Source: an uncultured Candidatus Saccharibacteria bacterium
GTDB taxonomy: Bacteria; Patescibacteriota; Minisyncoccia; Phycocordibacterales; UBA918
Direction: 5' to 3'
Length of the DNA: 64,000 nucleotides
Assembly (NCBI GenBank): GCA_964350985.1
Contig: CAYGLK010000001.1
Coordinates: 391,698 to 455,697 of the forward strand
Shown here piece by piece: positions 5,767 to 63,418 of this stretch (the stretch's first letter is position 1; each line of letters starts with the position of its first letter). The notes below the pieces were generated by a model. The model did not search any database. It had not been told where the DNA came from and was given only the letters and a program-made list of their open reading frames with translations. The translations under genes were made by a program, and so were the position numbers.

Positions 5767-6267
5767 ATGAAAAAAATATTATTTTTGAGCCTATTGTCAC
5801 TTTGTATTCTAGTTTCTAGTAACAGCGCCGAAGCCTATAGTGCCAGCAACCAAAAAGCCGTTCGTTTAAGCCCAGAATTCAGTTTATTTACAATTACTTA
5901 TACGTCTAAATTTCTAAATCGTGACGCCTACCTGCCAGTAGCGGCAGAACGTGGCTTAGACAATGAAAACCGAAAGCCAATTGTTGGTTTCGAACTTATC
6001 ACTGATGGTGGTCTACGAATTAAAGACGGAACAGCTTACGCTATTGTTTTAAGTTCTGCTTCTGTTAAAGAAAAAATGTATTTTACTGAAGAGAACGAAG
6101 CTGGTTCTTATACATTAGTTGTTTTATATAAGCATGCTGCTGACCGTAATGACACAGCCCTACAAATCACTTCCCTACCTTTTATCTTTGAAAAAGACGA
6201 TAAAAGAACAAGCACTAAACTCAACGAACACGAACTTGTTGATTACCGTACTGAGGCGTTAAACTAA
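5767..6267 (+). CDS. Secreted hypothetical protein
   Basis: Signal peptide MKKILFLSLLSLCILVSSNSAEA; no recognisable domain. Confidence 0.4.
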   Translation: MKKILFLSLLSLCILVSSNSAEAYSASNQKAVRLSPEFSLFTITYTSKFLNRDAYLPVAAERGLDNENRKPIVGFELITDGGLRIKDGTAYAIVLSSASVKEKMYFTEENEAGSYTLVVLYKHAADRNDTALQITSLPFIFEKDDKRTSTKLNEHELVDYRTEALN

Positions 6268-6309
6268 AATCCCTGAAGCACAAAAAATACCCTTGATAAA
6301 GGGTATTTT

Positions 6310-7047
6310 TTGTGCTATAATCAAAGATATATGTCTGAATTCCCAATGCGGATCAATAAATACATCGCCGAACAAAAAATCGCTTCACGTCGTGAAGCGG
6401 ATGTTTTAATTGCTGCTAAAAAGGTACGTGTTAACGGCAAAATAGCTGTTATTGGCCAAACTATCAATGAAGGTGACCAAGTAGAAGTCAAAGGTGCTAC
6501 TAAGAAATACGTATACTTAGCCTATTACAAAGGCCGAGGTATCATCACTCACTCCCCAACCAATGGTGAGATCGATATTGTTACTCGCCTACAAAAAGAC
6601 TATGGTCTGAAAGATCTCTCACCGGTTGGACGTTTAGACAAAGACTCTGAGGGTTTAATCATCATCAGTAACGACGGTCGGATTACTGGACCTCTTTGTG
6701 ACCCTGAAGCCAAGCACGAAAAAGAATACGAAGTAACTGTCAATAAACCAATCACGAGCATCTTTACCAAAATGATGGCACTAGGTGTAGACATAGAGGG
6801 CTACCGCACCAAACCAGCGCAAGTCAAAACGATTCCCAGAAGTGACAAACGATTTCTACTTACACTAACTGAAGGTAAGAAGCACCAGATCAGACGCATG
6901 TGCGCTGCTCTAGGTTACCAAGTACAATCGCTCAAACGAGTACGGATCATGAGTGTAGAACTAGGAACTCTAAAACCAAATCAATATCGAAAGATAAACG
7001 GTAATGATTTAAAAACCTTCTTAAAAGATTTAGATATTACATCTTAA
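6310..7047 (+). CDS. rRNA pseudouridine synthase (RsuA/RluB family); true start probably 6331 (MSEFPMRINKY)
   Basis: N-terminal S4 domain (RINKYIAEQKIASRREADVLI) and catalytic GRLDKDSEGLIIISNDG motif. Confidence 0.8.
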   Translation: MCYNQRYMSEFPMRINKYIAEQKIASRREADVLIAAKKVRVNGKIAVIGQTINEGDQVEVKGATKKYVYLAYYKGRGIITHSPTNGEIDIVTRLQKDYGLKDLSPVGRLDKDSEGLIIISNDGRITGPLCDPEAKHEKEYEVTVNKPITSIFTKMMALGVDIEGYRTKPAQVKTIPRSDKRFLLTLTEGKKHQIRRMCAALGYQVQSLKRVRIMSVELGTLKPNQYRKINGNDLKTFLKDLDITS

Positions 7048-7056
7048 ATATAAAAC

Positions 7057-7090
7057 AAAACCTTTGAGTCGACTCAAAGGTTTTGTTTTA
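7057..7090 (+). terminator. Rho-independent terminator after pseudouridine synthase gene
   Basis: aacctttgagtc/gactcaaaggtt hairpin followed by TTTTGTTTT. Confidence 0.6.
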
Positions 7091-7098
7091 ATTTTTTA

Positions 7099-7177
7099 TC
7101 TATCATGCATGATAGATAAAACTGAGGTCATATCATGCATGATATGAAGACTTAGATCGTATCATGTATGATACGAT
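7099..7177. repeat. Three phased palindromes sharing core ATCATGCATGAT (7099-7116, 7128-7147, 7156-7177; ~30-bp spacing)
   Basis: Read directly: tctatcatgcatgataga, tcatatcatgcatgatatga (perfect palindromes), atcgtatcatgtatgatacgat (imperfect centre); followed by further palindromes (atatcaaggttcgaccttgatat at ~7219-7241). Confidence 0.6.
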
Positions 7178-7284
7178 TAATTAATCGTTACAATTAAAGA
7201 GTCTGTCTCCTGTCTCCATATCAAGGTTCGACCTTGATATGACCTTGATGTAATAGAGTTTGCGTAGGGTTCTCCTTTGTAACA

Positions 7285-7316
7285 AAAAAGACGCGGCCGA
7301 AGACCGCGTCTTTTTT
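7285..7316 (-). terminator. Rho-independent terminator of typA
   Basis: gacgcggccgaagaccgcgtc hairpin flanked by A/T runs directly after the typA stop. Confidence 0.6.
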
Positions 7317-7331
7317 ATGTAATTAGTTTAA

Positions 7332-9113
7332 TTACTTCTTTCTTTCACTTTCCTTCAGCTTTGATTTTCGGAGACGAACGTTATGTGGCGTCACTTCTAG
7401 ATATTCGTCACCTGAAATGATTTCTAGACCAACTTCGATTGAAATAATTCGAGGATTGATTAGATTGATCGCTTCATCTGTTCCAGCAGAACGCATGTTT
7501 GTCAGCTGCTTTCCTTTAGTTGGATTTACAGTCATTTCTTCACCCTTACTAGTGTTTCCGATAACCATACCCTCGTAAACTTCTGTTCCAGCTGAGATAT
7601 ATAGCTGTCCACGGTCTTGGAGGCCATAAAGGGCAAAGCCAAGCGCTTTTCCTTGAACCATTGAAATCATAGATCCTACTTGTCGTTTCTTGATTTCTCC
7701 AGCATATGGTTGGAATCCTAATACTCGTGAAGCTAAGATACCTTCTCCCTTTGTATCAACGATAAATTGGTTCTTGTAGCCAAGCAGACCTCGTGTCGGT
7801 CCTTCGAAAAGAAGTCGAACCTGGTTTTCATGCATAATCATATTAGACATTATGAAGGCTCGGTTACCAAGACGTTCAATTACTGCTCCTTGGAATTCAG
7901 ATGGAATATCAATAGTCACTTCTTCAAACGGTTCCATTTTCTGTCCGTTTTCTTCTTTGATAATTACTTGTGGTTGAGATACAGAAAGCTCGTAACCTTC
8001 TCGACGCATGTTTTCAAGCAAGATAGCGATGTGCATTTCTCCACGACCTCGTACTTCATAAGAATCACCTTGTGAGAAGTCTACTTGCAAACCAACGTTG
8101 ATTTCAAGTTCTTTTTCAAGTCTTTCACGGATTTGACGTGAAGTAACATACTTTCCTTCTCGTCCAGCAAACGGTGAGGAGTTAGGCATGAACTGAAGTG
8201 CGATTGTTGGCTCATCTACAGCAATAGTTGGCAACGGCTCTGCAGTTTCGTCATCAGTTAGGGTATCTCCAATATTGATCTCTGAAAATCCAGCAATCAT
8301 CACAATATCTCCAGCAAAAGCTTCTGGTGTCTCTTGTTTCTGGATACCTTTGAAAGTAGACAGCTTTACAATTTTTCCTTTATTTATATTTGTCACTCCT
8401 TCGTGCTTAACAAACAGAGATTGATTAGCCTTCATCGAACCTTCATAGATTCGAGCTACAGCTAAACGACCAAGGAAGTTGTCGTACCCAAGGTTAAATA
8501 CTTGAGCTCGTAGTTTTTCTCCAGGAACATATTCACGGGCTGCTGGTACTTTTTCTAAAATAACATCAAGTAGTGGCGACAGGTCTTTTAGTTCATCATC
8601 CATCTTTCGTTTTGCTACACCATTTCTACCGATAGCATATACCACTGTGAAGTCTGATTGTTCATCGTTTGCCCCAAGTTCTAGGAAGAGTTCTAGTACT
8701 TGTTCTTCAGTTCGAGCTGGATCAGCTGCTGGCTTATCGATCTTGTTGATCACTACAATTGGCTTTAAACCGAGTTCTAGTGACTTTTTTAGTACAAACC
8801 GTGTCTGAGGCATTGGACCTTCTTGAGCGTCCACCACCAAGAGTACAGAGTCAATAGAACGTAGTACACGTTCTACTTCAGAACCGAAGTCGGCGTGACC
8901 AGGAGTATCAACAATGTTGATCTTTGTACCTTTGTATTCAACTGAGGTATTTTTGGCATAAATCGTAATACCACGCTCTTGTTCTAGAGCGTTACTATCC
9001 ATTGAAGTTGAACCATCACGAGCGCCAGTTTGCTCCATCAGAGCATCAGTAAGAGTGGTCTTACCATGGTCCACGTGAGCAATAATAGCGATATTACGAA
9101 TTTCCTTTGACAT
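7332..9113 (-). CDS. typA: GTP-binding protein TypA/BipA
   Basis: AIIAHVDHGKTTL G1 motif, DTPGHADF, NKIDK; 593 aa full length translational GTPase with BipA-type C-terminus. Confidence 0.9.
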   Translation of the reverse strand: MSKEIRNIAIIAHVDHGKTTLTDALMEQTGARDGSTSMDSNALEQERGITIYAKNTSVEYKGTKINIVDTPGHADFGSEVERVLRSIDSVLLVVDAQEGPMPQTRFVLKKSLELGLKPIVVINKIDKPAADPARTEEQVLELFLELGANDEQSDFTVVYAIGRNGVAKRKMDDELKDLSPLLDVILEKVPAAREYVPGEKLRAQVFNLGYDNFLGRLAVARIYEGSMKANQSLFVKHEGVTNINKGKIVKLSTFKGIQKQETPEAFAGDIVMIAGFSEINIGDTLTDDETAEPLPTIAVDEPTIALQFMPNSSPFAGREGKYVTSRQIRERLEKELEINVGLQVDFSQGDSYEVRGRGEMHIAILLENMRREGYELSVSQPQVIIKEENGQKMEPFEEVTIDIPSEFQGAVIERLGNRAFIMSNMIMHENQVRLLFEGPTRGLLGYKNQFIVDTKGEGILASRVLGFQPYAGEIKKRQVGSMISMVQGKALGFALYGLQDRGQLYISAGTEVYEGMVIGNTSKGEEMTVNPTKGKQLTNMRSAGTDEAINLINPRIISIEVGLEIISGDEYLEVTPHNVRLRKSKLKESERKK

Positions 9114-15201: not shown

Positions 15202-15810
15202 TTAACTTCTCCTCCATCTTTCGACGTAGGACTCGAGTTCTTCCCACGAATCAACCACTGTTCGAACTGGAGATGTCAGCAATAATTCACGAGAGTGGTA
15301 ACCAAAGCTGACTGCAACTACCGGCAAGCCAACTTTCTCCGCTTCATAAACATCACCAGTCGTATCAGTGATGAACAAAGCATTGCTAAGATCAATATCT
15401 TCCACTCTTTCAAGATGGAGGAACTTCTGAACTTTCGACAGTCCTGCCTCCATACCCAGAATAGATTGGAACAAATGATCCATTCTCGCATCCCGAAGCA
15501 CTCGCGCTATTGCGGCCCCGCAATTGCTTGAGACTACATGAAGCACTAATGATTCGGCTAAGCGCTTGATGTAGGGGGTCGAGGACTCAACGTGTTCCAG
15601 CGACAGATGCTGGTTGTAAAATGCCGCGTACGCCGCTGATGTTTCCGGCGTAAAACCGACCACGTTGCGCTCATAAACATTCCCCAAATGATGGTCGACC
15701 CGATAACTGTCTTCAAGCACCTCAGGATGAAGTTGCTTTACCAGCGACCAATTCAAAGCAAGTGTGTCGCCGACAACACCGTCGAAGTCAAGAAGAAGAT
15801 GCCTTTTCAT
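15202..15810 (-). CDS. HAD superfamily hydrolase (phosphoglycolate-phosphatase-like)
   Basis: LLLDFDGVV motif I; C-terminal FITDTTGDVYEAEKVGLPVV motif III/IV. Confidence 0.7.
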   Translation of the reverse strand: MKRHLLLDFDGVVGDTLALNWSLVKQLHPEVLEDSYRVDHHLGNVYERNVVGFTPETSAAYAAFYNQHLSLEHVESSTPYIKRLAESLVLHVVSSNCGAAIARVLRDARMDHLFQSILGMEAGLSKVQKFLHLERVEDIDLSNALFITDTTGDVYEAEKVGLPVVAVSFGYHSRELLLTSPVRTVVDSWEELESYVERWRRS

Positions 15811-16546: not shown

Positions 16547-16633
16547 GGAGAGATGGCAGAGTGGTTGAACGCGCATCCTTGGAAAGGATGTATGGGGGCA
16601 ACCCCATCGGGGGTTCGAATCCCCCTCTCTCCG
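16547..16633 (+). tRNA. tRNA-Ser (anticodon GGA)
   Basis: Cloverleaf read by hand: acceptor GGAGAGA/TCTCTCC, anticodon stem CATCC/GGATG with loop TTGGAAA, long variable arm (TATGGGGGCAACCCCATC), T-arm GGGGGTTCGAATCCCCC, discriminator G; no encoded CCA. Confidence 0.8.
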
Positions 16634-16760
16634 CAAAATTGATAAACTCATACTTTTGTATGGGTTTATTAATTTCTGCGCTGGTGGATTCGAAGCCCGA
16701 TTGAGCTGGATTATGAGTCTACGAAATAATCTAGCCAATCGGGGTACTGAAACTGTAAGT

Positions 16761-16776
16761 TTCGAATCCCCCTCTC
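16761..16776 (+). repeat. 16-nt direct repeat of tRNA-Ser T-loop/3' end (TTCGAATCCCCCTCTC), att-like scar
   Basis: Exact match to 16614-16629 inside the tRNA; the surrounding gtaag..cat does not fold as a T-stem, so it is a fragment rather than a second tRNA. Confidence 0.6.
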
Positions 16777-16852
16777 ATAAAATCCATGAGAGTGACCGAA
16801 TCCCAGTATCTACGCACTTTGCGTGAAGCTTTTAGTAGTTACCAGAACAAAC

Positions 16853-16881
16853 ATTGACATTATTAATATTTTGTGCTAAGG
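16853..16881 (+). promoter_or_regulatory. Putative sigma70-type promoter (TTGACA-N17-TAAGGT) for the GC-rich insert gene
   Basis: ttgacattattaatattttgtgctaaggt upstream of the strong RBS aaggagg and ATG at 16934. Confidence 0.35.
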
Positions 16882-16933
16882 TTTCAACTAGCCATTTCTG
16901 GCTTATTCATATATCCACAACAAGGAGGGTTCC

Positions 16934-17455
16934 ATGTACATTGACCACTTACCAATGCCGAACTGCCCCGCAAGGAAGGTGGTTGTCATCGAAGATTGCG
17001 ACAAGCCCTACACTGTGCTCTTCGTCGATCAGGTGATCGAGAAAGCTCGCATCCACGATGCTACCTCGCGGGACAGCGATAGCGACGAGATCTTCTGGAT
17101 CGTCTTTGCCAACGAACCGCGACGTGCTTGGGACATGACCGAGTCGGCGCTGCGCAGCTCGCTGCGCCGCCCGAAGTCGGAGCGTCTGCCCAAGGAGCAG
17201 CTTATCGCCATGGGCGATGATGCTCCGATCGGCGAGATCCTCGAGACCTTCGACTACGGCGGCCTCATCTCGTTCGCTCAGCGCGACATGCCGATGGTGT
17301 GCCGGGAACTCGAAATGTCCACGCTCGGCGATATTGCCAAGCTGAAGCGTTCTGAGATCACTGGTCCGCAGTACCGCTACGCCGGTAACAAGACGCTGTC
17401 GTACCTTGACTCCGTCCTGAACGAGTTTGGCAAGCCGCCGCTCCAGGCCCTCTAG
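16934..17455 (+). CDS. Hypothetical protein with C-terminal RNA-polymerase-alpha-CTD-like helix-hairpin-helix segment; GC-rich foreign gene
   Basis: Local GC ~60% vs ~38% flanks; AAGGAGG 8 nt upstream of ATG; C-terminal LGDIAKLKRSEITGPQYRYAGNKTLSYLDSVLNEFG resembles alphaCTD HhH; the antisense ORF 16949-17497 is the usual high-GC artefact. Confidence 0.55.
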   Translation: MYIDHLPMPNCPARKVVVIEDCDKPYTVLFVDQVIEKARIHDATSRDSDSDEIFWIVFANEPRRAWDMTESALRSSLRRPKSERLPKEQLIAMGDDAPIGEILETFDYGGLISFAQRDMPMVCRELEMSTLGDIAKLKRSEITGPQYRYAGNKTLSYLDSVLNEFGKPPLQAL

Positions 17456-17514
17456 AACGCCGGACGACCAATCCGAGGAGATGAAGATACTGCTCATTCG
17501 TGCTCCACCTCACC

Positions 17515-17545
17515 ATGATCCGCCCTTCCAGGCGGATCATTTTTC
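17515..17545 (+). terminator. Rho-independent terminator of GC-rich insert gene
   Basis: gatccgcccttccaggcggatc hairpin followed by ATTTTTC. Confidence 0.55.
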
Positions 17546-17614
17546 ATATAAAAACTTGGCTTTTGAAAAAATGTATTTAATTTTTATTCAACGGAGAAAA
17601 ATTCTACGAACATT

Positions 17615-18511
17615 CTACTTCCCCATCTCTCGAAGTATACGAATACGATCTTCTGCTGGTGGATGAGTGGCAAAAAGGCCATTGATCCTCTGACCAATAG
17701 ATTTCTTTTTTTCTTCACCATATGGGTCAGAGATAAACAAGTGTGCTGTAGCGTGAGATGAACGTTTCATCGGCCTGCTTGCTCCACTGATTTTTTCTAG
17801 AGCAGAAGCCAGACCTTCTGGATAACGAGTCAAAAGAGAAGCAGAAGCATCAGCTAAGTATTCACGCTTACGTGAAATAGCTAATTGGATCATTTGCGCT
17901 GCAATCGGAGCCAAGATAATTCCCGCAATACCCAAGATCAAGAAGATTGGACTCCGGTCTCGATCTCCACCACCAAAAAACATTGCTCGAGAAAGAAAGT
18001 CTGCCAAGATAGCAACAAAACCAGCCAACACCACAGCCACAGTCATCACTAGCATGTCACGATTGCCAACGTGAGATAACTCATGAGCCATTACTCCTTC
18101 TAGTTCATTTCGATCCAAGATATCCAAGAGACCAGTTGTAGCGGCTACTACAGCATGTTCAGGATCACGTCCTGTTGCAAACGCGTTAGGTGAAGGATCG
18201 TTTACTATATAAATCTTAGGCATTGGTAAACCAGCTGTGATTGAAAGATTTTCTACCACGTTATGAAGCTCTGGAAACTCTTGTTTTGTCGCTGGCACAG
18301 CCCCAGTCATTCTCAAAACGAGTTTATCGGAAAACCAATAACTATAAACATTCATTCCTAAGGCAAAAATAACAGCAATGTAGACAATTGAAGGATTATT
18401 TAAGTACCAAGAAGCGGCATAACCAATAGCAATAATTGCCACCAAAAAACCAGTCATTAAAAACCAAGTCTTTCGTACGTTTGCATCCTTTTGAGTGTAT
18501 ATTGTAGCCAT
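17615..18511 (-). CDS. htpX: Heat-shock membrane zinc protease HtpX (M48)
   Basis: HELSHV zinc-binding HExxH, N-terminal TM helices, characteristic length/topology. Confidence 0.85.
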   Translation of the reverse strand: MATIYTQKDANVRKTWFLMTGFLVAIIAIGYAASWYLNNPSIVYIAVIFALGMNVYSYWFSDKLVLRMTGAVPATKQEFPELHNVVENLSITAGLPMPKIYIVNDPSPNAFATGRDPEHAVVAATTGLLDILDRNELEGVMAHELSHVGNRDMLVMTVAVVLAGFVAILADFLSRAMFFGGGDRDRSPIFLILGIAGIILAPIAAQMIQLAISRKREYLADASASLLTRYPEGLASALEKISGASRPMKRSSHATAHLFISDPYGEEKKKSIGQRINGLFATHPPAEDRIRILREMGK

Positions 18512-57871: not shown

Positions 57872-58308
57872 TTATCTAGTAGGGCGATAAATAACACCAT
57901 CTTTCATATTATTTAAAGTTCCTTCAGAGGGTTCAAAAATGTTTTCCGGGAGAGCATCTAGAGAGAACCATTCCCAACGATCGCATTTATGCGGCTCCAT
58001 ATTCTTCGGCTCACCCCCATTATAATGAGCTACCACAGAAACATTCAAGTAATGCTTATCGTCAGACTCTATGTAACGCATTTCATCAAAAACCGAGACT
58101 AGTTCAAAATCAGAAACATCTAAGTCAGTCTCTTCTTTTACTTCACGCTTCGCTGTCTCAAACACTGTTTCGCCAAATTCTAAGTGCCCCCTGGAAATGA
58201 CCACTCCCCTGTACCATGCGAAGAATTACGTAGACCTAAAAGCACTTCATTTTCGGAATTTAGAATAACGACACCAATCCCAACTCTAACATTTGGTTTT
58301 TCTTTCAT
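57872..58308 (-). pseudogene. Nudix hydrolase with -1 frameshift in a G5 tract (~58193-58197)
   Basis: Minus-strand ATG at 58308 encodes MKEKPNVRVGIGVVILNSENEVLLGLRNSSHGTGEWSFPGG then hits TAG; adding one G restores FPGGHLEFGETVFETAKREVKEETDL (Nudix box) continuing into ORF 57872-58204. Confidence 0.6.
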
Positions 58309-58387
58309 AACAACAGTATATCAAATTTGACCGTCCTCTATTGGAGTCTCGAACTTTAGTACGTTGCTAAATATAGCTTAAACTCGT

Positions 58388-58420
58388 TGCTGACTGTCTG
58401 GGACGACGTTAGAATTTTTT
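58388..58420 (-). repeat. Cassette-boundary element copy 3 (tgctgactgtctgggacgacgttagaatttttt)
   Basis: Same family; upstream flank gttgctaaatatagcttaaact also matches the array head at 62760-62780. Confidence 0.6.
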
Positions 58421-58426
58421 ACAACC

Positions 58427-59128
58427 TTAATCAACTTCTGGAACCCAAACCCCTTCTTTATACTTTTGAACAGGATGACCTCCACAAGGAATATCTCCCA
58501 TGAAGAAAACTACATCAATTACAGTCTCACCCGCATTATCATCCCTAGTGTAGTCGTACTTAACAATTTCACCATCTTCACCTTTAGTAGTGATATCCAA
58601 TCTCTTGAGACCATCTTCATCTTCCTCTCGTCGAACAATTTCATACTCGCCCCCACCAACAATTTCTTCAAGTACATTTAATACTTCTCTTTCATTGAGA
58701 ACTTTTTCTGCACTTTTTTCATTTGATTGTGTTTCCTCATTAGCCTGCATTAGTAGAGACACTTCTAATAGTAACTTCTCAGATTCTAACTGACTTCTTT
58801 CCACAGCAGCTTTGACTTCACTTGGTCGCGGATCTAAATCAATATCTAAATCAGCATACTGAGTAATATCTACCCAATTAAGACCTCTCCTTTTAACTTC
58901 TGCCCTAATTTCTTCAAAAGAAGCTGTTTCAGGCAACTCCAATAAATTAGCCATTTTCACAAAATGCCTTCTCTCATACTCTTCATCAATTTCTTCAAAA
59001 GAAGCCGTGTCTGGAAGGGCATATTTACGAGCTTTTAGTAGTCTCATTTCTTCACTCCATTCTATTTCATCTCTATGGTAAGGTAGTTCATTTCTCTTAA
59101 CACCTTCATTTGTCATTTTTTCAGTCAT
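58427..59128 (-). CDS. Hypothetical acidic protein (cassette)
   Basis: Intact 233-aa ORF; internal duplicated LPxTASFEEI segments; leaderless TATACT 6 nt before ATG. Confidence 0.45.
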   Translation of the reverse strand: MTEKMTNEGVKRNELPYHRDEIEWSEEMRLLKARKYALPDTASFEEIDEEYERRHFVKMANLLELPETASFEEIRAEVKRRGLNWVDITQYADLDIDLDPRPSEVKAAVERSQLESEKLLLEVSLLMQANEETQSNEKSAEKVLNEREVLNVLEEIVGGGEYEIVRREEDEDGLKRLDITTKGEDGEIVKYDYTRDDNAGETVIDVVFFMGDIPCGGHPVQKYKEGVWVPEVD

Positions 59129-59207
59129 GTTACAAGTATACCAAAAAATTCTATGGTCCCTATCAGGTACTAAATTTTAGTTTAAAAAATAAGGCTTAAA
59201 TAATTTA

Positions 59208-59237
59208 CTGGCCGTATGGGAATGTTAGAACTTTTTT
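59208..59237 (-). repeat. Cassette-boundary element copy 4 (ctggccgtatgggaatgttagaactttttt)
   Basis: Same family; forms 5' arm of ~100-bp imperfect inverted repeat ending tgatagggaccatagaat near 59150. Confidence 0.6.
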
Positions 59238-59276
59238 AAGTATATGAAAACGCCCTAACCAAGCAGCGCTTTCGGG

Positions 59277-59849
59277 TTAGGGCGTGGTCTCGATGAGACG
59301 AACTACATTGTTGAAGACTTCTTTTTTTGAACCGGCTGGCACTAGATTCAACTGTGGAATCTGCCCAGCAACCTGATCGAACACCATAGAGTCGGCCAAG
59401 CGCCTGACGATAGTTTCGTCTGTCTCTCCCCGGCTCCTGAGACGACGTGTCAGCTCATCAACTCCTGGAGCAACCAGATGAACTGGAATACATCTAACGC
59501 CCCTACCTTGGAACCAATCTGACACCAGCTGGTGGCACTCAGGAATAATGCAAACGAATGCCAGGCCACCTGTCTCAGCTGCCGCCTCAGCAAACTGTGA
59601 CTCAGTGCAACAGTATTGGTGGCCGTGATTAAGGACTTTCCAAATAAATTCCGTGATATCTCTCAGACCTTCCAATGTCTGAAAGTCATAATCGACGTCA
59701 GTTTCATAAGGACGGCGAGGACGAGTGGTAATGCTGCGCACCCTGCCGCCACCGTAGTGAGTCTCCAGAGCTCGTTCCAGGGTTGTTTTACCAACTCCTG
59801 AGGCCCCAGTGATTGTCACAACCTTCTTGATCATTGTCCAGAACTCCAA
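59277..59849 (-). CDS. Guanylate-kinase-like P-loop protein (GC-rich; probable start 59831)
   Basis: ITGASGVGKTTL Walker A then SITTRPRRPYETDVDYDF (GMP-binding TTRxxRxxE..G.DY.F); ~52% GC; GGAG RBS instead of leaderless -10; terminator hairpin cgccctaacc...ggttagggcg after stop. Confidence 0.65.
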   Translation of the reverse strand: MEFWTMIKKVVTITGASGVGKTTLERALETHYGGGRVRSITTRPRRPYETDVDYDFQTLEGLRDITEFIWKVLNHGHQYCCTESQFAEAAAETGGLAFVCIIPECHQLVSDWFQGRGVRCIPVHLVAPGVDELTRRLRSRGETDETIVRRLADSMVFDQVAGQIPQLNLVPAGSKKEVFNNVVRLIETTP

Positions 59850-59933
59850 TGTGTGCTTTCAGCATAAAATCACAGATTAAGTGATTCGTCAATATTAGAA
59901 AATGTGGCCAGCCGTCATTTTTTCAAAAGTTTT

Positions 59934-60524
59934 TTATAAAACAGCCCAAAATACTTTCCATTCAAAATCCCTCAATGTCACTAGCTCCAGTTCTAGGTTA
60001 GTGTTTTCTAAAAGTGAAAGGGCTTGTGGGTTTGGTGGTAAATCTTTGCTTTCAAAATGGCATACAATTCTCAACGGCAAAAGACCAAGTCCTTCACGAA
60101 CCTTACCTCCAGACTCGTCATCATGAAAAGGACTGTACTTACCAATCACATATGCTCCTGCAGAAGATCCGGCAATTGTCTTTCCCTTTAAGTTCTCCCT
60201 AAGGTTATTGTACTTATTTAATGCAGTGAGAAGTCTTGGTGTACTGCCTCCACGCAAGTAAAGTGCGTCTGACTTCTTGAGTTGTTCAATGAAATCATTT
60301 TCATTAGCTAACAAAAAATGCAACTGCTTTCCTTGTGCCTGCTCTTTATGCTTTTTAATATTTTCCTCAAACTTCCCGGCACTATCTTCATCTGTTGAAG
60401 CAAAATGACAAAGTAATATTGTCGCTTGATCTGGCAAATCACGCACAATCTCCTCATAAAAAGTCCGATTTTGTTCATTGTCAGTACCTGTATATCCACC
60501 ATGTAGAATAAACTTAGTTTTCAT
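59934..60524 (-). CDS. Peptidase S51 family (dipeptidase E / cyanophycinase-like)
   Basis: LYLRGGSTPRLL and IAGSSAGA (GxSAG nucleophile) motifs. Confidence 0.7.
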   Translation of the reverse strand: MKTKFILHGGYTGTDNEQNRTFYEEIVRDLPDQATILLCHFASTDEDSAGKFEENIKKHKEQAQGKQLHFLLANENDFIEQLKKSDALYLRGGSTPRLLTALNKYNNLRENLKGKTIAGSSAGAYVIGKYSPFHDDESGGKVREGLGLLPLRIVCHFESKDLPPNPQALSLLENTNLELELVTLRDFEWKVFWAVL

Positions 60525-60549
60525 ATATATATTATATCAAAATATCAAA

Positions 60550-60590
60550 CTGGCTGTTTTGGGACGATGTTAGAGCTTTTAAACTCTAAC
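60550..60590 (-). repeat. Cassette-boundary element copy 5 (ctggctgttttgggacgatgttagagcttttaaactctaac)
   Basis: Same family; contains a local palindrome GTTAGAGC-TTTAAAAG-CTCTAAC. Confidence 0.6.
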
Positions 60591-61133
60591 CTACTCTTGT
60601 ACTGGTCTCACCATCTCAATTACAGGCAACATCCCTTTATATAAAGCAATCTCTGTATCAGTCTTTTTGAAACCATATCTTTCATAAAAACTTATAGCTG
60701 AATCATTAAAACGAAATGCCTCCAAACGAGAATATTTTTCGTGATCTGACCATGACAAAAACTCTTCAATCAGTTTAGGTCCTATTCCCATACCCTTAGC
60801 TTCATTCAGTAGATATATAGCGTCAAGTTCGTTATATGTCTCATGTTTTATTCCATGCATAAAACCAACAATCTCTCCACTTCCATTTCTTACTACTCTA
60901 TAAATTACTTTTTCTGGATTTGCCAAAGCTTCAGCAATCACTTTTCTTCTATAGTCTGTATTAATTAACATCTCTCCACGCATTTCATCGACCATTTCAT
61001 CAGTAAGACCTGACTCTTCACCTACATATGATTCTTTCCAAGACTGAATATGCATCTTAGCTAGCGCTAATTCTTCACCAACTTTTGGTAATTCGATTTT
61101 GAATGACGGGCTATTCTCTATATTACTTTCCAT
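60591..61133 (-). CDS. GNAT family N-acetyltransferase
   Basis: GMGIGPKLIEEFL motif A; typical GNAT length. Confidence 0.75.
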   Translation of the reverse strand: MESNIENSPSFKIELPKVGEELALAKMHIQSWKESYVGEESGLTDEMVDEMRGEMLINTDYRRKVIAEALANPEKVIYRVVRNGSGEIVGFMHGIKHETYNELDAIYLLNEAKGMGIGPKLIEEFLSWSDHEKYSRLEAFRFNDSAISFYERYGFKKTDTEIALYKGMLPVIEMVRPVQE

Positions 61134-61164
61134 GTAGGAAGTATATCAGAGCAAAATATTACTT

Positions 61165-61584
61165 TTATAATGCTTCAAATGCCTTAGAAAGCATAGACCC
61201 CTGTCCTGACTGAAGTACATGGGCAGATTCTAGTGGAATCCAAAAACATTCAAATTTAATACCCCCTTCACTACTTGCCCAACGTTCTGGCAAATCTTCT
61301 GTTGGTTCAGCTAAGAAAAAGTGTCTTTCTTGTATTTCTTTTCTATATGGCGTCATATCATAATCTTGAACACCTAGCTGTTTAATTATTTTAAAACAAC
61401 TATAACCAGTCTCTTCTTGTAGTTCACGCATAGCTGCCACCTCAGGAGATTCGTCTTGTTCAATCGTTCCAGCCGGGACTTGAATACCTACTTCTTCATA
61501 AGAGAAATCAACATGGCGAAACACCAGTAATTTGTTATTACTAATTACATAAACAATTACTTTCTTTTTATGCGCTTTATCCAT
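61165..61584 (-). CDS. Nudix hydrolase
   Basis: Nudix box VPAGTIEQDESPEVAAMRELQEETGY. Confidence 0.8.
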   Translation of the reverse strand: MDKAHKKKVIVYVISNNKLLVFRHVDFSYEEVGIQVPAGTIEQDESPEVAAMRELQEETGYSCFKIIKQLGVQDYDMTPYRKEIQERHFFLAEPTEDLPERWASSEGGIKFECFWIPLESAHVLQSGQGSMLSKAFEAL

Positions 61585-61602
61585 TACCTTAATTATACCA
61601 AA

Positions 61603-61640
61603 CTGGTTTATGCCTATCTGAGACTATGTTTGAACTTTAA
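61603..61640 (-). repeat. Cassette-boundary element copy 6 (diverged; overlaps coding 3' end of 61614-62075)
   Basis: ctggtttatgcctatctgagactatgtttgaacttt; ~75% match to consensus and encodes C-terminal KFKHSLR. Confidence 0.5.
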
Positions 61641-62075
61641 TTTACCAATAGTAGATTTTGTAATTTCTGTAAGCGCTGCCTCAACATCCAGAAAATCCCC
61701 CACCTTTGTTTTTTTGCTTGGGTTACCTTCAAAATATCTTTTGTCGAAATCCAACAAATTATTTTTTAATTCTTCGCTGATTTCACATTCATCTCCTTTT
61801 ATTACAACTAGTATTTTGTGATCAGCTTGATCATCTTCAAAATATTCAACCATTCCGATTGGAACACACTCAACTACTGAACTATGTGTAAGTTCTTTGT
61901 CCGTTATTACATAACAATCTAATTCATCCCCATCTGCAGCCAGAGTGTCCAGAATGTAACCATAGGGGTACGGATAGGTAATATGAAAGTCTACCGTCTT
62001 TTCATAGGCACCTGTTTTTTTATTAAAAACATTCTTTTTTAATGTTTGACTAGTCTGCTCAATAAAAACTTTCAT
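61614..62075 (-). CDS. ppa: Inorganic pyrophosphatase (family I)
   Basis: YPYPYGYILDTLAADGDELDCYVI....VVECVPIGMVEYFEDDQADHKILVV matches the family I motifs (YPxNYGFIP.T...DGDPLDVLV....R.VG....D..G.D.K..AV). Confidence 0.75.
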   Translation of the reverse strand: MKVFIEQTSQTLKKNVFNKKTGAYEKTVDFHITYPYPYGYILDTLAADGDELDCYVITDKELTHSSVVECVPIGMVEYFEDDQADHKILVVIKGDECEISEELKNNLLDFDKRYFEGNPSKKTKVGDFLDVEAALTEITKSTIGKLKFKHSLR

Positions 62076-62152
62076 AATCTGAAGTATACCAAAGTTCTAT
62101 AGTCCCTAACGGATACTAAGTTTTAGATTGAAAAATAAGCCTCTAATATCGA

Positions 62153-62190
62153 GCTAGCTGCATGAGACGACGTTAGAACTTTTTTAATAA
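62153..62190 (-). repeat. Cassette-boundary element copy 7 (gctagctgcatgagacgacgttagaacttttttaataa)
   Basis: Same family; 5' arm of ~100-bp imperfect inverted repeat ending ccgttagggactatagaac at ~62100. Confidence 0.6.
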
Positions 62191-62191
62191 A

Positions 62192-62710
62192 TTAGTCAAT
62201 TCTGTATTCAGCATTTTCTGGTAATGAAATATCTTTAAACTCAAAAGTGACGCCAAGTCTCTTCATCTCTTCTACAGGATTATCAATTCTTTCAATTTCA
62301 ATTGGTTTAGTAGGTTCATTTGAAACCACTTCTAAATTACCTAATCCTTCTTTGTACACAAAAGTATTATCATCAAACTGATATAAATAGCCGCCTTCTC
62401 CATAAAGCACTTGCAGACTAGCTTCTAATGAATCAACCCCAATTATCAATACGGATTTATTATTGTCGTACAGACTGACACCCATACCATAGCTACCCTT
62501 AAAGCCCTCTTTTTTAATAGGCCTCGGATTATCTGTGTACGCTAGGGCAATCCACCTTTCTCGAGTAGCGTGAAATGATTCTTCATCAAAAACAACGACC
62601 GTAACACCCTCTTCATTTTCTTGAGTTCTGACTTGCCTTGATGGTCTAGCTTCTTCAGCATCAAATTTTTCACACGTACCGTGAAAAACTCTATTAGGTA
62701 TTTTTTCCAT
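62192..62710 (-). CDS. Hypothetical protein (first cassette after tRNA-Gln)
   Basis: Intact 172-aa ORF; leaderless TATAAT 6 nt before ATG. Confidence 0.45.
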   Translation of the reverse strand: MEKIPNRVFHGTCEKFDAEEARPSRQVRTQENEEGVTVVVFDEESFHATRERWIALAYTDNPRPIKKEGFKGSYGMGVSLYDNNKSVLIIGVDSLEASLQVLYGEGGYLYQFDDNTFVYKEGLGNLEVVSNEPTKPIEIERIDNPVEEMKRLGVTFEFKDISLPENAEYRID

Positions 62711-62785
62711 GATTAAATTATATCAAATATATTTCTATCAGAGACTCAAACTTTTATATGTTGCTAAATATAGCTAAACTGTGTA

Positions 62786-62804
62786 GCTGCCGATCAGGGA
62801 CTCG
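62786..62804 (-). repeat. 19-nt exact direct repeat of the tRNA-Gln 3' end (gctgccgatcagggactcg); proximal att-like site of the cassette array
   Basis: Identical to 62969-62987 inside/abutting the tRNA; the following sequence (ggtcaggagtcgtttatttaataa) is homologous to the tail of the downstream boundary elements (gacgttagaattttttacaa). Confidence 0.7.
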
Positions 62805-62927
62805 GTCAGGAGTCGTTTATTTAATAATCGTTCCACTCATTTAAATAATACGCTCACTACCCTGGCGGGTCAAACAGTCTCCAGACTGTTTGCTTCCGCC
62901 TTTCTCGTCCCCGATCTCGCAGGCTGA

Positions 62928-62967
62928 GACACTAAAATAGCTAGCAAAAGCTAGCTATTTTAGTGTC
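62928..62967. repeat. Perfect 18-bp-arm palindrome (gacactaaaatagctagc aaaa gctagctattttagtgtc) abutting the tRNA-Gln 3' end
   Basis: Read directly from sequence. Confidence 0.7.
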
Positions 62968-62969
62968 AG

Positions 62970-63040
62970 CTGCCGATCAGGGACTCGAACCCCAATAGCT
63001 GGTACCAGAAACCAGAGTCCTACCATTAGACGAATCGGCA
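62970..63040 (-). tRNA. tRNA-Gln (anticodon CTG)
   Basis: Minus strand folds as TGCCGAT / D-arm GTCT-AATGGTA-GGAC / anticodon arm CTGGT-TTCTGGT-ACCAG / variable CTAT / T-arm TGGGG-TTCGAGT-CCCTG / ATCGGCA + discriminator G; U1-A72 as in bacterial tRNA-Gln. Confidence 0.7.
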
Positions 63041-63253: not shown

Positions 63254-63328
63254 CCCCAATAGCTGGTACTAGGTAAATAGTCATGGGATGACTATTTACG
63301 GAGTCCGCTTCAGGACGAATCGGCAATG
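63254..63328 (-). pseudogene. Disrupted second copy of tRNA-Gln (pseudo-tRNA)
   Basis: Shares TGCCGATTCGTC (acceptor/D-stem) and TACCAGCTATTGGGG with the intact tRNA, but anticodon region replaced by ~40 unrelated nt and no T-arm. Confidence 0.5.
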
Positions 63329-63418
63329 TTTTCTTTTGGTCTGCAACACCTTTATTCCACTCAATTTTTCTGTGCTGTGGCAACATATTGCCACAACTGT
63401 AAAAATATTCCAAGGATC

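Follow-up and report, generated by a model that had tools for sequence, protein, structure and literature searches.

Why should a short interval behind a bacterial tRNA gene hold broken copies of that same tRNA and, next to them, a single GC-rich gene of foreign composition? This is the question raised by the tRNA-Ser(GGA) locus in the 64-kb window analysed here (by which we mean the whole stretch of DNA, 64,000 nucleotides (nt) of contig CAYGLK010000001.1), where the tRNA gene (16547-16634, plus strand; called by ARAGORN, and by Rfam with a tRNA match of 55.3 bits) is parted from htpX by the interval 16635-17614. An earlier note on this DNA saw in it one insertion, made up of tRNA, spacer, repeat and cargo. 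The answer that we favour, if with no great margin of confidence, is that recombination has a hot spot in this interval, in a low-GC genome of the Parcubacteria/Paceibacteria type, within the candidate phyla radiation (CPR), and that the interval holds two unrelated layers. The first (16635-16848) would be what decay has left of an array of miniature units, which are non-autonomous and were inserted site-specifically, and the second (16849-17545) would be a self-contained cassette of promoter, gene and terminator, whose recent source was a member of the same superphylum with higher GC. We place the host among the low-GC CPR bacteria because the named relatives of its HtpX (77-85% identity) come mostly from metagenome-assembled genomes of Ca. 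Paceibacterota, Nomurabacteria, Parcubacteria or Patescibacteria.

Are the repeats genuine copies of the tRNA?

The answer is yes. The sequence TTCGAATCCCCCTCTC, which comprises the T-loop, the 3' strand of the T-stem and the beginning of the acceptor strand, has exactly two occurrences in the window, one within the tRNA at 16614-16629 and one at 16761-16776, so that the two copies lie 147 nt apart from start to start, with a gap of 126 nt after the end of the tRNA. The chance expectation is 0.03 and none of 100 shuffles gave two copies, which disposes of the chance match that the earlier note had named as its own alternative and confirms the 16-nt repeat that it had described (with a start, 16615, that is trivially off by one base). 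It had also held that the second copy stands outside any tRNA context, and in agreement with this neither ARAGORN nor Rfam calls a tRNA or any other family between tRNA-Ser and the open reading frame (ORF) of the GC-rich gene; the Rfam matches other than tRNA, at E 3e-5 to 0.5, all fall far under the gathering thresholds. A third, degenerate copy of the tRNA end (CGAATCCCAGTATCTACGCA, 16797-16816), identical at 16 of 20 positions and belonging to the direct repeat family D1, is among the best window-wide matches to the 26-mer at the 3' end of the tRNA in a Smith-Waterman search of both orientations. The TTCGAATCCCCCTCTC repeat is therefore a genuine partial tRNA copy of the sort left by recombination at tRNA genes.

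Do the repeats belong to mobile units?

It is the comparison with related genomes that gives these repeats their meaning. By BLAST, positions 16620-16776 are 89-90% identical in four related loci (L012-L015; such L-numbers are labels of compared contigs or loci from other genomes), in which tRNA-Ser(GGA) itself is 93-94% identical and the htpX DNA only 77%. Reading these four, together with four metagenome contigs found by a tRNA-Ser pattern, we recognise a family of units of about 100-170 nt each, which sit directly 3' of tRNA-Ser(GGA) in arrays of zero to three and consist, in this order, of a terminator-like hairpin (in most units), a left inverted repeat (IR-L), a structured centre of about 60-100 nt and a right repeat (IR-R). 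The full IR-L, found in L019, L020, L012 and L015, is the reverse complement of the tRNA 3' end and reads GCGGAGAGAG, a 9-bp hairpin of variable sequence and then GGGGATTCGAA, while IR-R is the tRNA 3' end in direct orientation, extending up to TTCGAATCCCCCTCTCTCCGC, with complete copies (ending in CTCTCTCCGC) in L015 and L019. The segment of the tRNA that is copied in this way runs from the T-loop to the 3' end, 16614-16634. At least four types of centre (A to D) recur, unrelated to the tRNA and to one another, and their order varies between contigs: L012 has tRNA-A-B, L015 has tRNA-C-B-A, L019 and L145 both have tRNA-B-D, L020 has a single A/B mosaic unit, and L016 and L018 have none. In the window and the fetched loci the unit motifs occur nowhere but 3' of tRNA-Ser(GGA), no such repeats were seen at other tRNAs in the unrelated Parcubacteria loci examined, and our literature searches returned no description of such units in Patescibacteria.

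What the window retains, all on the plus strand, is a B unit fused to part of another. It opens with a terminator-like hairpin (ATAAACTCATAC-TTTT-GTATGGGTTTAT) and its T-rich tail (16642-16677), read from the sequence, which the consensus terminator scan did not pick and which is kept with unit B in L012 and L015. There follow the IR-L (16678-16695; GGTGGATTCGAA), an inverted copy of the T-loop and T-stem that the repeat search lists as inverted repeats I3 and I5 and that is shortened, without the acceptor-like part; a central 18-bp hairpin (16696-16743; CCCGATTGAGCTGGATTAT ... ATAATCTAGCCAATCGGG), supported by folding and covariation; and the IR-R, the exact 16-nt copy already described, which ends in CTCTC, before TCCGC, at the joint with the next unit. 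Comparison of motifs with L015 and L021 identifies the remainder (16777-16848) as a C-type fragment, and this contains AATCCATGAGAGTGACCGAATCCCA (16781-16805), the third tRNA-end copy and a small hairpin, ACGCA-CTT-TGCGT. Since AATCCATGAGAGTGACCGAATCCCA is identical in L015 and differs at two of its 25 positions in L021, and the DNA following it differs in all three, its edge fits a recombination junction, to judge from the alignment.

That whole units come and go is seen most directly in two comparisons. Over 1325 nt, L018 and L020 share 99.7% identity, save for one indel of 172 nt that amounts to exactly one unit with its terminator and is bounded by TCCCCCTCTCTCCGC, and L016 and L145, with no unit and two units respectively, have the same TspO gene after the tRNA; in both pairs we thus have a presence/absence polymorphism with its break-points at the repeats. 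In every unit type, moreover, identity with the tRNA starts in the T-loop or at its end (with TTCGAAT, CGAAT or T) and runs 3'-ward. The combination of identity bounded by the T-loop, a new terminator and differences by whole units is the signature of site-specific recombination with a cross-over in the T-loop.

Might the repeats have arisen locally, with no dedicated recombinase, by slippage, by template switching at the terminator palindrome or through unequal crossing-over, with the 3' end of the tRNA duplicated in the process? Hairpins are known to mutate by palindrome extension, and the L020 unit is flanked by direct repeats, each of some 50 nt and made up of the tRNA end and the terminator, between which homologous recombination could delete it, but local duplication does not yield centres as unrelated as types A to D, or the same unit types in different orders across genomes, and we regard such an origin as very improbable. 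The spacer and repeat that the earlier note had picked out are in any case real, while its picture of one insertion does not hold, as the module occurs with other cargo or with none.

As to a larger parent, a search of IMG/VR gave no match for an element from which unit B might descend. The 21-mer of the tRNA-Ser end matches at least 120 IMG/VR contigs, a count that is uninformative on origin and shows only that this end is widely shared by viral and proviral contigs. One of these, the high-GC contig L045 (1920-1964 and 10406-10495), carries a P4-type integrase island that opens with a partial tRNA-Ser 3' end and has, about 8.4 kb on, the tRNA-Ser 3' end in inverted orientation and interrupted by a hairpin (TGGCGGAGAGA-hairpin-GCGGGGGATTCGAAG), then a further hairpin and then a partial direct copy. 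This design resembles the IR-L of the CPR units and is the single such case among the 120 viral loci scanned.

Does selection act on RNA or on DNA?

The spacer behind tRNA-Ser had been described as highly structured, and so it is, with z -5.5 when folded as DNA and z -5.9 as RNA. Two hairpins had been singled out, and both are present: the 8-bp stem CCCGATTG/CAATCGGG belongs to the 18-bp central hairpin of unit B, whereas CTCTCAT-N7-ATGAGAG (16772-16792) is probably fortuitous, because it spans the joint of two unit fragments and is not kept in relatives. Full units close with a helix of IR-L and IR-R around the hairpins, with z -4.4 to -11.4. In six homologous copies of unit B, 98.6% of the cells in the central hairpin and inner closing helix (24 pairs) are paired, three pairs (7 cells) have changed on both sides, the covariation score was reached by none of 500 shuffles, and shifted registers collapse. 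The fold also has a preferred strand, since the tRNA-sense strand is the more stable in 12 of 12 units (one of them at tRNA-Gln, see below), by 2.3-11.7 kcal/mol, and it has 23 G.U pairs where the complement has 7. It would therefore seem that selection acts on the sense strand in some single-stranded form, be it RNA or DNA.

This invites the idea that the units are small structured RNAs, read together with the tRNA (by read-through, for example) and acting at the RNA level as a tRNA mimic, decoy, processing signal or regulator, with the changes in DNA being secondary. Much of the above is what one would then expect, namely the strong folds, the compensatory changes in the central hairpin, the bias to the sense strand in stability and in G.U pairs, and the conservation of unit B beyond that of the adjoining protein genes; besides, the closing helix reproduces the acceptor stem of tRNA-Ser (GGAGAGA/TCTCTCC), IR-L is antisense to the 3' half of the tRNA, and the shape of a hairpin within IR-L (P2) is kept with unrelated sequences in different units. 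Yet a terminator-like hairpin precedes most units, no unit promoter is evident, the tRNA alone has an Rfam match, the window copy is without the acceptor-like 5' strand and its 3' strand is cut short, and the units are mosaic and dispensable, with zero to three in an array and none at all in L016 and L018. We accordingly think an RNA function fairly unlikely as the primary explanation, and continue to prefer that of inserted units.

Is a second tRNA gene occupied in the same way?

Here the statement of the earlier note, that the layout at tRNA-Ser is met again at tRNA-Gln, proved sound. Next to tRNA-Gln(CTG) (62969-63040, minus strand) lies a unit-like region (62785-62968) with sequences specific to tRNA-Gln: a terminator hairpin, a degenerate inverted copy of the end of that same tRNA, a pair of hairpins and, at 62785-62804, a direct copy that is exact over 20 nt, the whole folding with z -6.7.

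Other features of this neighbourhood are worth recording. Downstream of tRNA-Gln, at 58300-62820, there is a run of short same-strand genes with related intergenic repeats of 30-80 nt (D1-D3) between them, which include degenerate sequences like the tRNA-Gln end and a motif, CAGTTTAGCTAYATTTAGCAAC, that also occurs between the racemase gene and htpX in L012; this run may be a cassette-like array. On the other side, about 220 nt upstream of the real tRNA-Gln, a partial tRNA-Gln-like sequence (63254-63332, minus strand) has 5' and anticodon-arm parts that are 95% identical to the tRNA, split by an insert, and is not called by ARAGORN.

Where did the GC-rich gene come from?

The second layer begins at 16849, 6 nt before the -35 element, and its first part (16849-16933, plus strand), delimited by DNA homology to L002-L006, holds promoter, 5' untranslated region and Shine-Dalgarno (SD) sequence. 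The promoter-like pair consists of a TTGACA -35 (16854-16859), a spacer of 17 nt and a TG-n-TAAGGT -10 (16874-16882, with TAAGGT at 16877-16882); it is conserved in L002 and is missed by a consensus scan, TAAGGT matching three of the six positions of TATAAT. An AAGGAGG SD (16922-16928) precedes the 173-aa ORF (16934-17455, plus strand), behind which stands a GC hairpin terminator, so that all four elements are where the earlier note had put them. Its GC-rich segment is equally plain in 200-nt sliding windows, in which GC is 0.52-0.645 across 16900-17500 against 0.383 for the whole window.

That the gene is foreign, as had been supposed, follows from its composition, with 59% GC overall and a GC content at third codon positions (GC3) of 0.79 where nine of ten host genes have 0.20-0.34 (the exception, at 0.48, is a HAD-like gene), and from its having no counterpart in the same slot of relatives: comparison of the tRNA-Ser flanks finds a racemase there in L012 and a 189-aa ORF in L015, and the gene is not conserved at this position. 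It has 17 homologues, at 54-100% protein identity, none with a Pfam domain or functional annotation, and those that have a name or a context are of the Parcubacteria type, among them Ca. Adlerbacteria (84%) and Ca. Parcubacteria SURF_41 (73%). The contigs that match at the DNA level, with 81-82% identity, have 49-56% GC. The DNA is 81% identical to L002-L006 from 16849 to 17502, with lower identity onward through the terminator, and L007 matches 16952-17509 at 82%; because homology runs from before the -35 through the terminator, the whole transcription unit has been transferred. A gene GC of 0.61-0.62 against 0.48-0.56 for the contig that carries it is seen in all homologous loci. On the evidence of this nearest DNA the donor would be another Parcubacteria-type genome of 48-56% GC, not a member of a classical high-GC phylum, so that one half of the origin previously suggested, from a phage or from high-GC bacteria, gives way to a source nearer home. 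We also reject the other half, along with a plasmid origin, as the gene has no match in PHROGs, IMG/VR, INPHARED or PLSDB.

The ratio of nonsynonymous to synonymous substitution (dN/dS) of the gene against three homologues is 0.15-0.22, which indicates purifying selection. In other genomes it is found in variable regions, with tRNA-Ala or tRNA-Ser(GCT) some 3.5-4 kb away and CBASS-type or Shedu-type genes beside it, and with no tRNA-end repeats near it within the fetched flanks, and the 64-kb window has no second copy. Direct repeats of the tRNA 3' end bound the mini-unit at both ends and do not bound the GC-rich gene. The Smith-Waterman search with the tRNA 26-mer found no tRNA-end copy, in either orientation, in the AT-rich junction between the cassette and the htpX stop codon (17546-17614, assigned to no strand): the best direct match near the junction scores 20 and lies inside the conserved C-terminal coding end of htpX, the inverted candidate scores 12, and neither rises above background.

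What might the protein do?

We think that it may be a small DNA-binding modulator of transcription that works through an alpha-CTD-like C-terminal domain, though we hold this with low confidence. An AlphaFold2 model made with 16 homologues (predicted local distance difference test score 90.7) has two domains, an N-terminal alpha/beta domain (about residues 1-80) to which no fold is assigned and a C-terminal one (about residues 85-170) resembling the C-terminal domain of the RNA polymerase alpha subunit (alpha-CTD; PF03118), a DNA- and activator-binding domain of the helix-hairpin-helix (HhH) type, with which it is compared here by predicted fold. The compact bundle of about 65 residues with two HhH motifs that defines the alpha-CTD is present in the predicted structure. 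By alignment, hhalign pairs the protein with E. coli alpha-CTD at E 0.16 and a probability of 0.4%, setting LGDI...GNKTL against IGDL...LGKKSL. The DNA-binding '265 determinant' of alpha-CTD comprises R265, N268, C269, G296, K298 and S299 (E. coli numbering). G151, K153 and T154 of GNKTL, and C123, are invariant or nearly so among the homologues, and GNKTL aligns with the G296-K298-S299 hairpin, while equivalents of R265 and N268 are not clear. The likeness first suggested for the C-terminus therefore stands as a predicted fold and a conserved hairpin motif, and does not stand as family membership: the check that had been proposed, a Pfam and profile search for RNA_pol_A_CTD, gave no match, there being no Pfam family at E<=1 and no alpha-CTD in a PDB profile search, and ten proteins that share either domain have no Pfam match.

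The promoter hints at how such a protein could be used. In L002-type loci the -35 lies within a perfect 12+1+12 palindrome (GAAACATTGACA-A-TGTCAATGTTTC), which suggests autoregulation by a dimeric DNA binder. Stand-alone homologues of the N-domain (about 77-100 aa) are also found, at L009 5733-6038 and L010 6001-6261, as single-gene islets of elevated GC with TTGACA-type promoters of their own, lying between housekeeping genes in Parcubacteria and Saccharibacteria genomes.

Is there an arrest peptide at the terminator?

The conserved 3' region of the cassette (17475-17545, plus strand), delimited by alignment, translations of six loci and a terminator scan, contains an SD-like GAGGAG, a micro-ORF and the intrinsic terminator (stem 17515-17524/17531-17540, T-run 17541-17545). 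In five of the six homologous loci a micro-ORF encoding M-x-x-I-R-(A/G)-P-P follows a good SD and runs into the terminator stem; outside the window it is located at L001 4535-4620, L002 4532-4610, L007 6532-6610 and L148 1103-1190. In the window the orthologous start is ATA (17487-17489), an in-frame ATG at 17481 abuts the GAGGAG, and IRAPP, whose R-A-P-P codons occupy 17499-17510, has three synonymous differences from the other loci in its A-P-P codons. By the usual size of a ribosome footprint, a ribosome stalled at RAPP should cover the 5' arm of the terminator, 17515-17524.

A small ORF with R-A-P-P or R-G-P-P before a regulated gene is the mark of RAPP-type motifs, and both forms occur here, R-G-P-P being that of L002; as in the RAPP/RGPP arrest-peptide systems (ApdA, ApdP and SecM-like), the ORF is short, and another gene lies downstream of it in L001 and L002. 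The most robust ribosome arrest has been reported for these two motifs, RAPP and RGPP (PMC12992588; PMC10951233). The known arrest peptides regulate the translation of a downstream secretion gene, unlike what is seen here, where only about eight residues lead up to the motif and the micro-ORF belongs to the 3' region of a gene and extends into an intrinsic terminator. It is plausible that this could be an arrest-controlled terminator for the gene downstream, which in L001 is of the Shedu type.

How might the two layers have come about?

For the first layer, units would enter and leave by recombination inside the T-loop-to-3'-end segment of the tRNA gene, with the cross-over in the T-loop and perhaps a circular intermediate; each event would rebuild the tRNA with a fresh terminator and shift older units outward, and the window would keep one unit, its IR-L shortened and its IR-R cut off at the point where part of a second unit is joined on. 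The recombinase, most plausibly a tyrosine-type integrase, would act in trans, from elsewhere. For the second layer, the cassette would have landed in the variable slot beside the array.

Several points weigh against this reading and should be set out together. An integrase gene, as tRNA-targeting elements would carry, is found neither within the units, which contain no ORF, nor among the ten window ORFs of 288-399 aa compared with Pfam (eight match unrelated families and two match none), and it is for this reason that we place the enzyme in trans. A double-stranded circle of about 150-170 bp is very small for classical integrase chemistry, and a plain attP/attB model has no need of IR-L. The sense-strand bias in all 12 units points to a single-stranded RNA or DNA form and not to a purely duplex site. 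The GC-rich gene is not within the segment that the repeats bound and has no distal tRNA copy, so that adjacency is what links the cassette to the mechanism, and the idea that one mechanism had brought in the cargo as well is not supported; homologues of the gene also occur without units. Finally, the likeness to alpha-CTD is modest and at the level of the fold (Foldseek E ~1, in addition to the hhalign value and the lack of a Pfam family), and the palindrome over the -35 is degenerate in the window.

The inverted copy, the one-sided hairpin and the strand bias, left unexplained by duplex attP/attB recombination, are what keep alive both the RNA explanation and another, in which the units are recombination substrates in single-stranded DNA. 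IR-L and IR-R would then fold to rebuild the duplex tRNA target, much as integron attC sites or CTX phage attP do, and strand exchange followed by replication would insert a circle beside the tRNA. It accounts well for the presence in every unit of inverted and direct copies of the specific tRNA 3' end, the Ser and Gln versions differing accordingly, as well as for the one-sided bulged hairpin (P2) in IR-L and the strand-biased folding; a length of 100-170 nt suits single-stranded circles better than duplex ones, and the newest unit would stand beside the tRNA, as in cassette arrays. To be set against these attractions, in DNA little is gained from G.T pairs, no GTTRRRY-type core is seen at the ends of the units as read, most units are gene-less, neither an IntI-like nor any other recombinase is among the ten ORFs scanned, and the evidence is all architectural, so that we consider a single-stranded route quite unlikely. 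Going further, one might propose that the units of about 100-170 nt are previously undescribed CPR mini mobile elements, a single strand of which mimics the duplex 3' end of a tRNA gene for integron- or CTX-like insertion, with tRNA genes as the 'attI' of cassette-like arrays. We see this as a doubtful proposal; were it true, gene-carrying versions of such units might possibly be present at tRNA-Gln. Insertion of units by an integrase acting in trans is still the account we prefer.

What surrounds the locus?

The cassette is convergent with htpX (17615-18511, minus strand), and the neighbours of the locus comprise NUDIX, htpX, DUF2207, LemA and GroEL/ES genes. In relatives the order GroES-GroEL-LemA-x-DUF2207-htpX is kept and everything beyond htpX differs, while tRNA-Ser(GGA) is near htpX in most of them, either convergent with it (L012-L015, as in the window) or codirectional and directly behind it (L016, L144-L146). 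In L142, a relative without tRNA-Ser beside htpX, a degenerate sequence like the tRNA-Ser end (GACGAATCCCCTTCTCTCCCT) lies within 6219-7396, where an IS110-family transposase gene ends about 330 nt away. Two genes upstream of tRNA-Ser, and so on its 5' side, the HAD-family hydrolase gene (15202-15810, minus strand; local GC 0.50-0.53, GC3 0.48) may be another acquired gene.

Why does it matter, and what is it like?

CPR bacteria, or Patescibacteria, have tiny genomes and gain genes in ways that are poorly understood, and we have here a tRNA-linked hot spot at which single genes are swapped among close relatives. A partial-tRNA repeat beside a foreign gene is of a known kind, that of tRNA-linked integration hot spots. 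What goes beyond the ordinary is, first, the gene-less, strongly structured and hairpin-rich mini-units, which contain the tRNA 3' end both direct and inverted and are gained or lost between near-identical strains, and which, if they are active non-autonomous elements or single-strand substrates, would amount to an integration system that is very compact and has a target programmable by the tRNA. Beyond the ordinary too are the wandering and uncharacterised gene, which adds a family of stand-alone alpha-CTD-like proteins found near CBASS and Shedu genes in other genomes, and the RAPP/RGPP micro-ORF overlapping a terminator at its 3' end, which suggests that control by arrest peptides may act on transcription termination.

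Among known systems, REPINs (repetitive extragenic palindromic doublets forming hairpins), bacterial interspersed mosaic elements (BIMEs) and miniature inverted-repeat transposable elements (MITEs) are likewise short, non-coding palindromic units that form long hairpins just after genes. REPINs and MITEs are dispersed in many copies, whereas the window and the fetched loci have no such dispersal, our units standing only at the cognate tRNA with arms that match it. Integrons, including clusters of attC sites lacking an integrase (CALINs), and the folded attP of CTX phage are comparable, in that inverted repeats, imperfect and 60-140 nt long, fold into a mimic of the partner site, with arrays by a primary site and strand-specific folding. 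They differ in that here a tRNA gene would be the primary site, most units have no ORF, no integron integrase was found and there is no GTTRRRY core; with no recombinase among the window ORFs scanned and with unit ends derived from the tRNA (TTCGAATCCCCCTCTCTCCGC), a place for the units among integron cassettes or attC sites is not supported, and they are similar to these in hairpin logic only.

Comparable in their target are the genomic islands at tRNA genes, such as those of the tycheposons in Prochlorococcus, and the accretion of integrative and conjugative elements (ICEs) with cis-mobilisable elements (CIMEs), the latter being non-autonomous derivatives that depend on an integrase in trans. 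Those islands differ from what we describe, since our units are of about 140-170 nt and gene-less, with no integrase nearby, with an inverted target copy and conserved hairpins, and with the foreign gene outside the repeats. In both, all the same, the target is the tRNA 3' end, the tRNA is regenerated, variable cargo collects by the tRNA, and partial copies mark successive events as older insertions are pushed outward. This is the pattern described for tycheposons, where serial integration at a tRNA gene leaves partial tRNA copies and newer elements push older ones outward (bioRxiv 10.1101/2020.12.28.424599).

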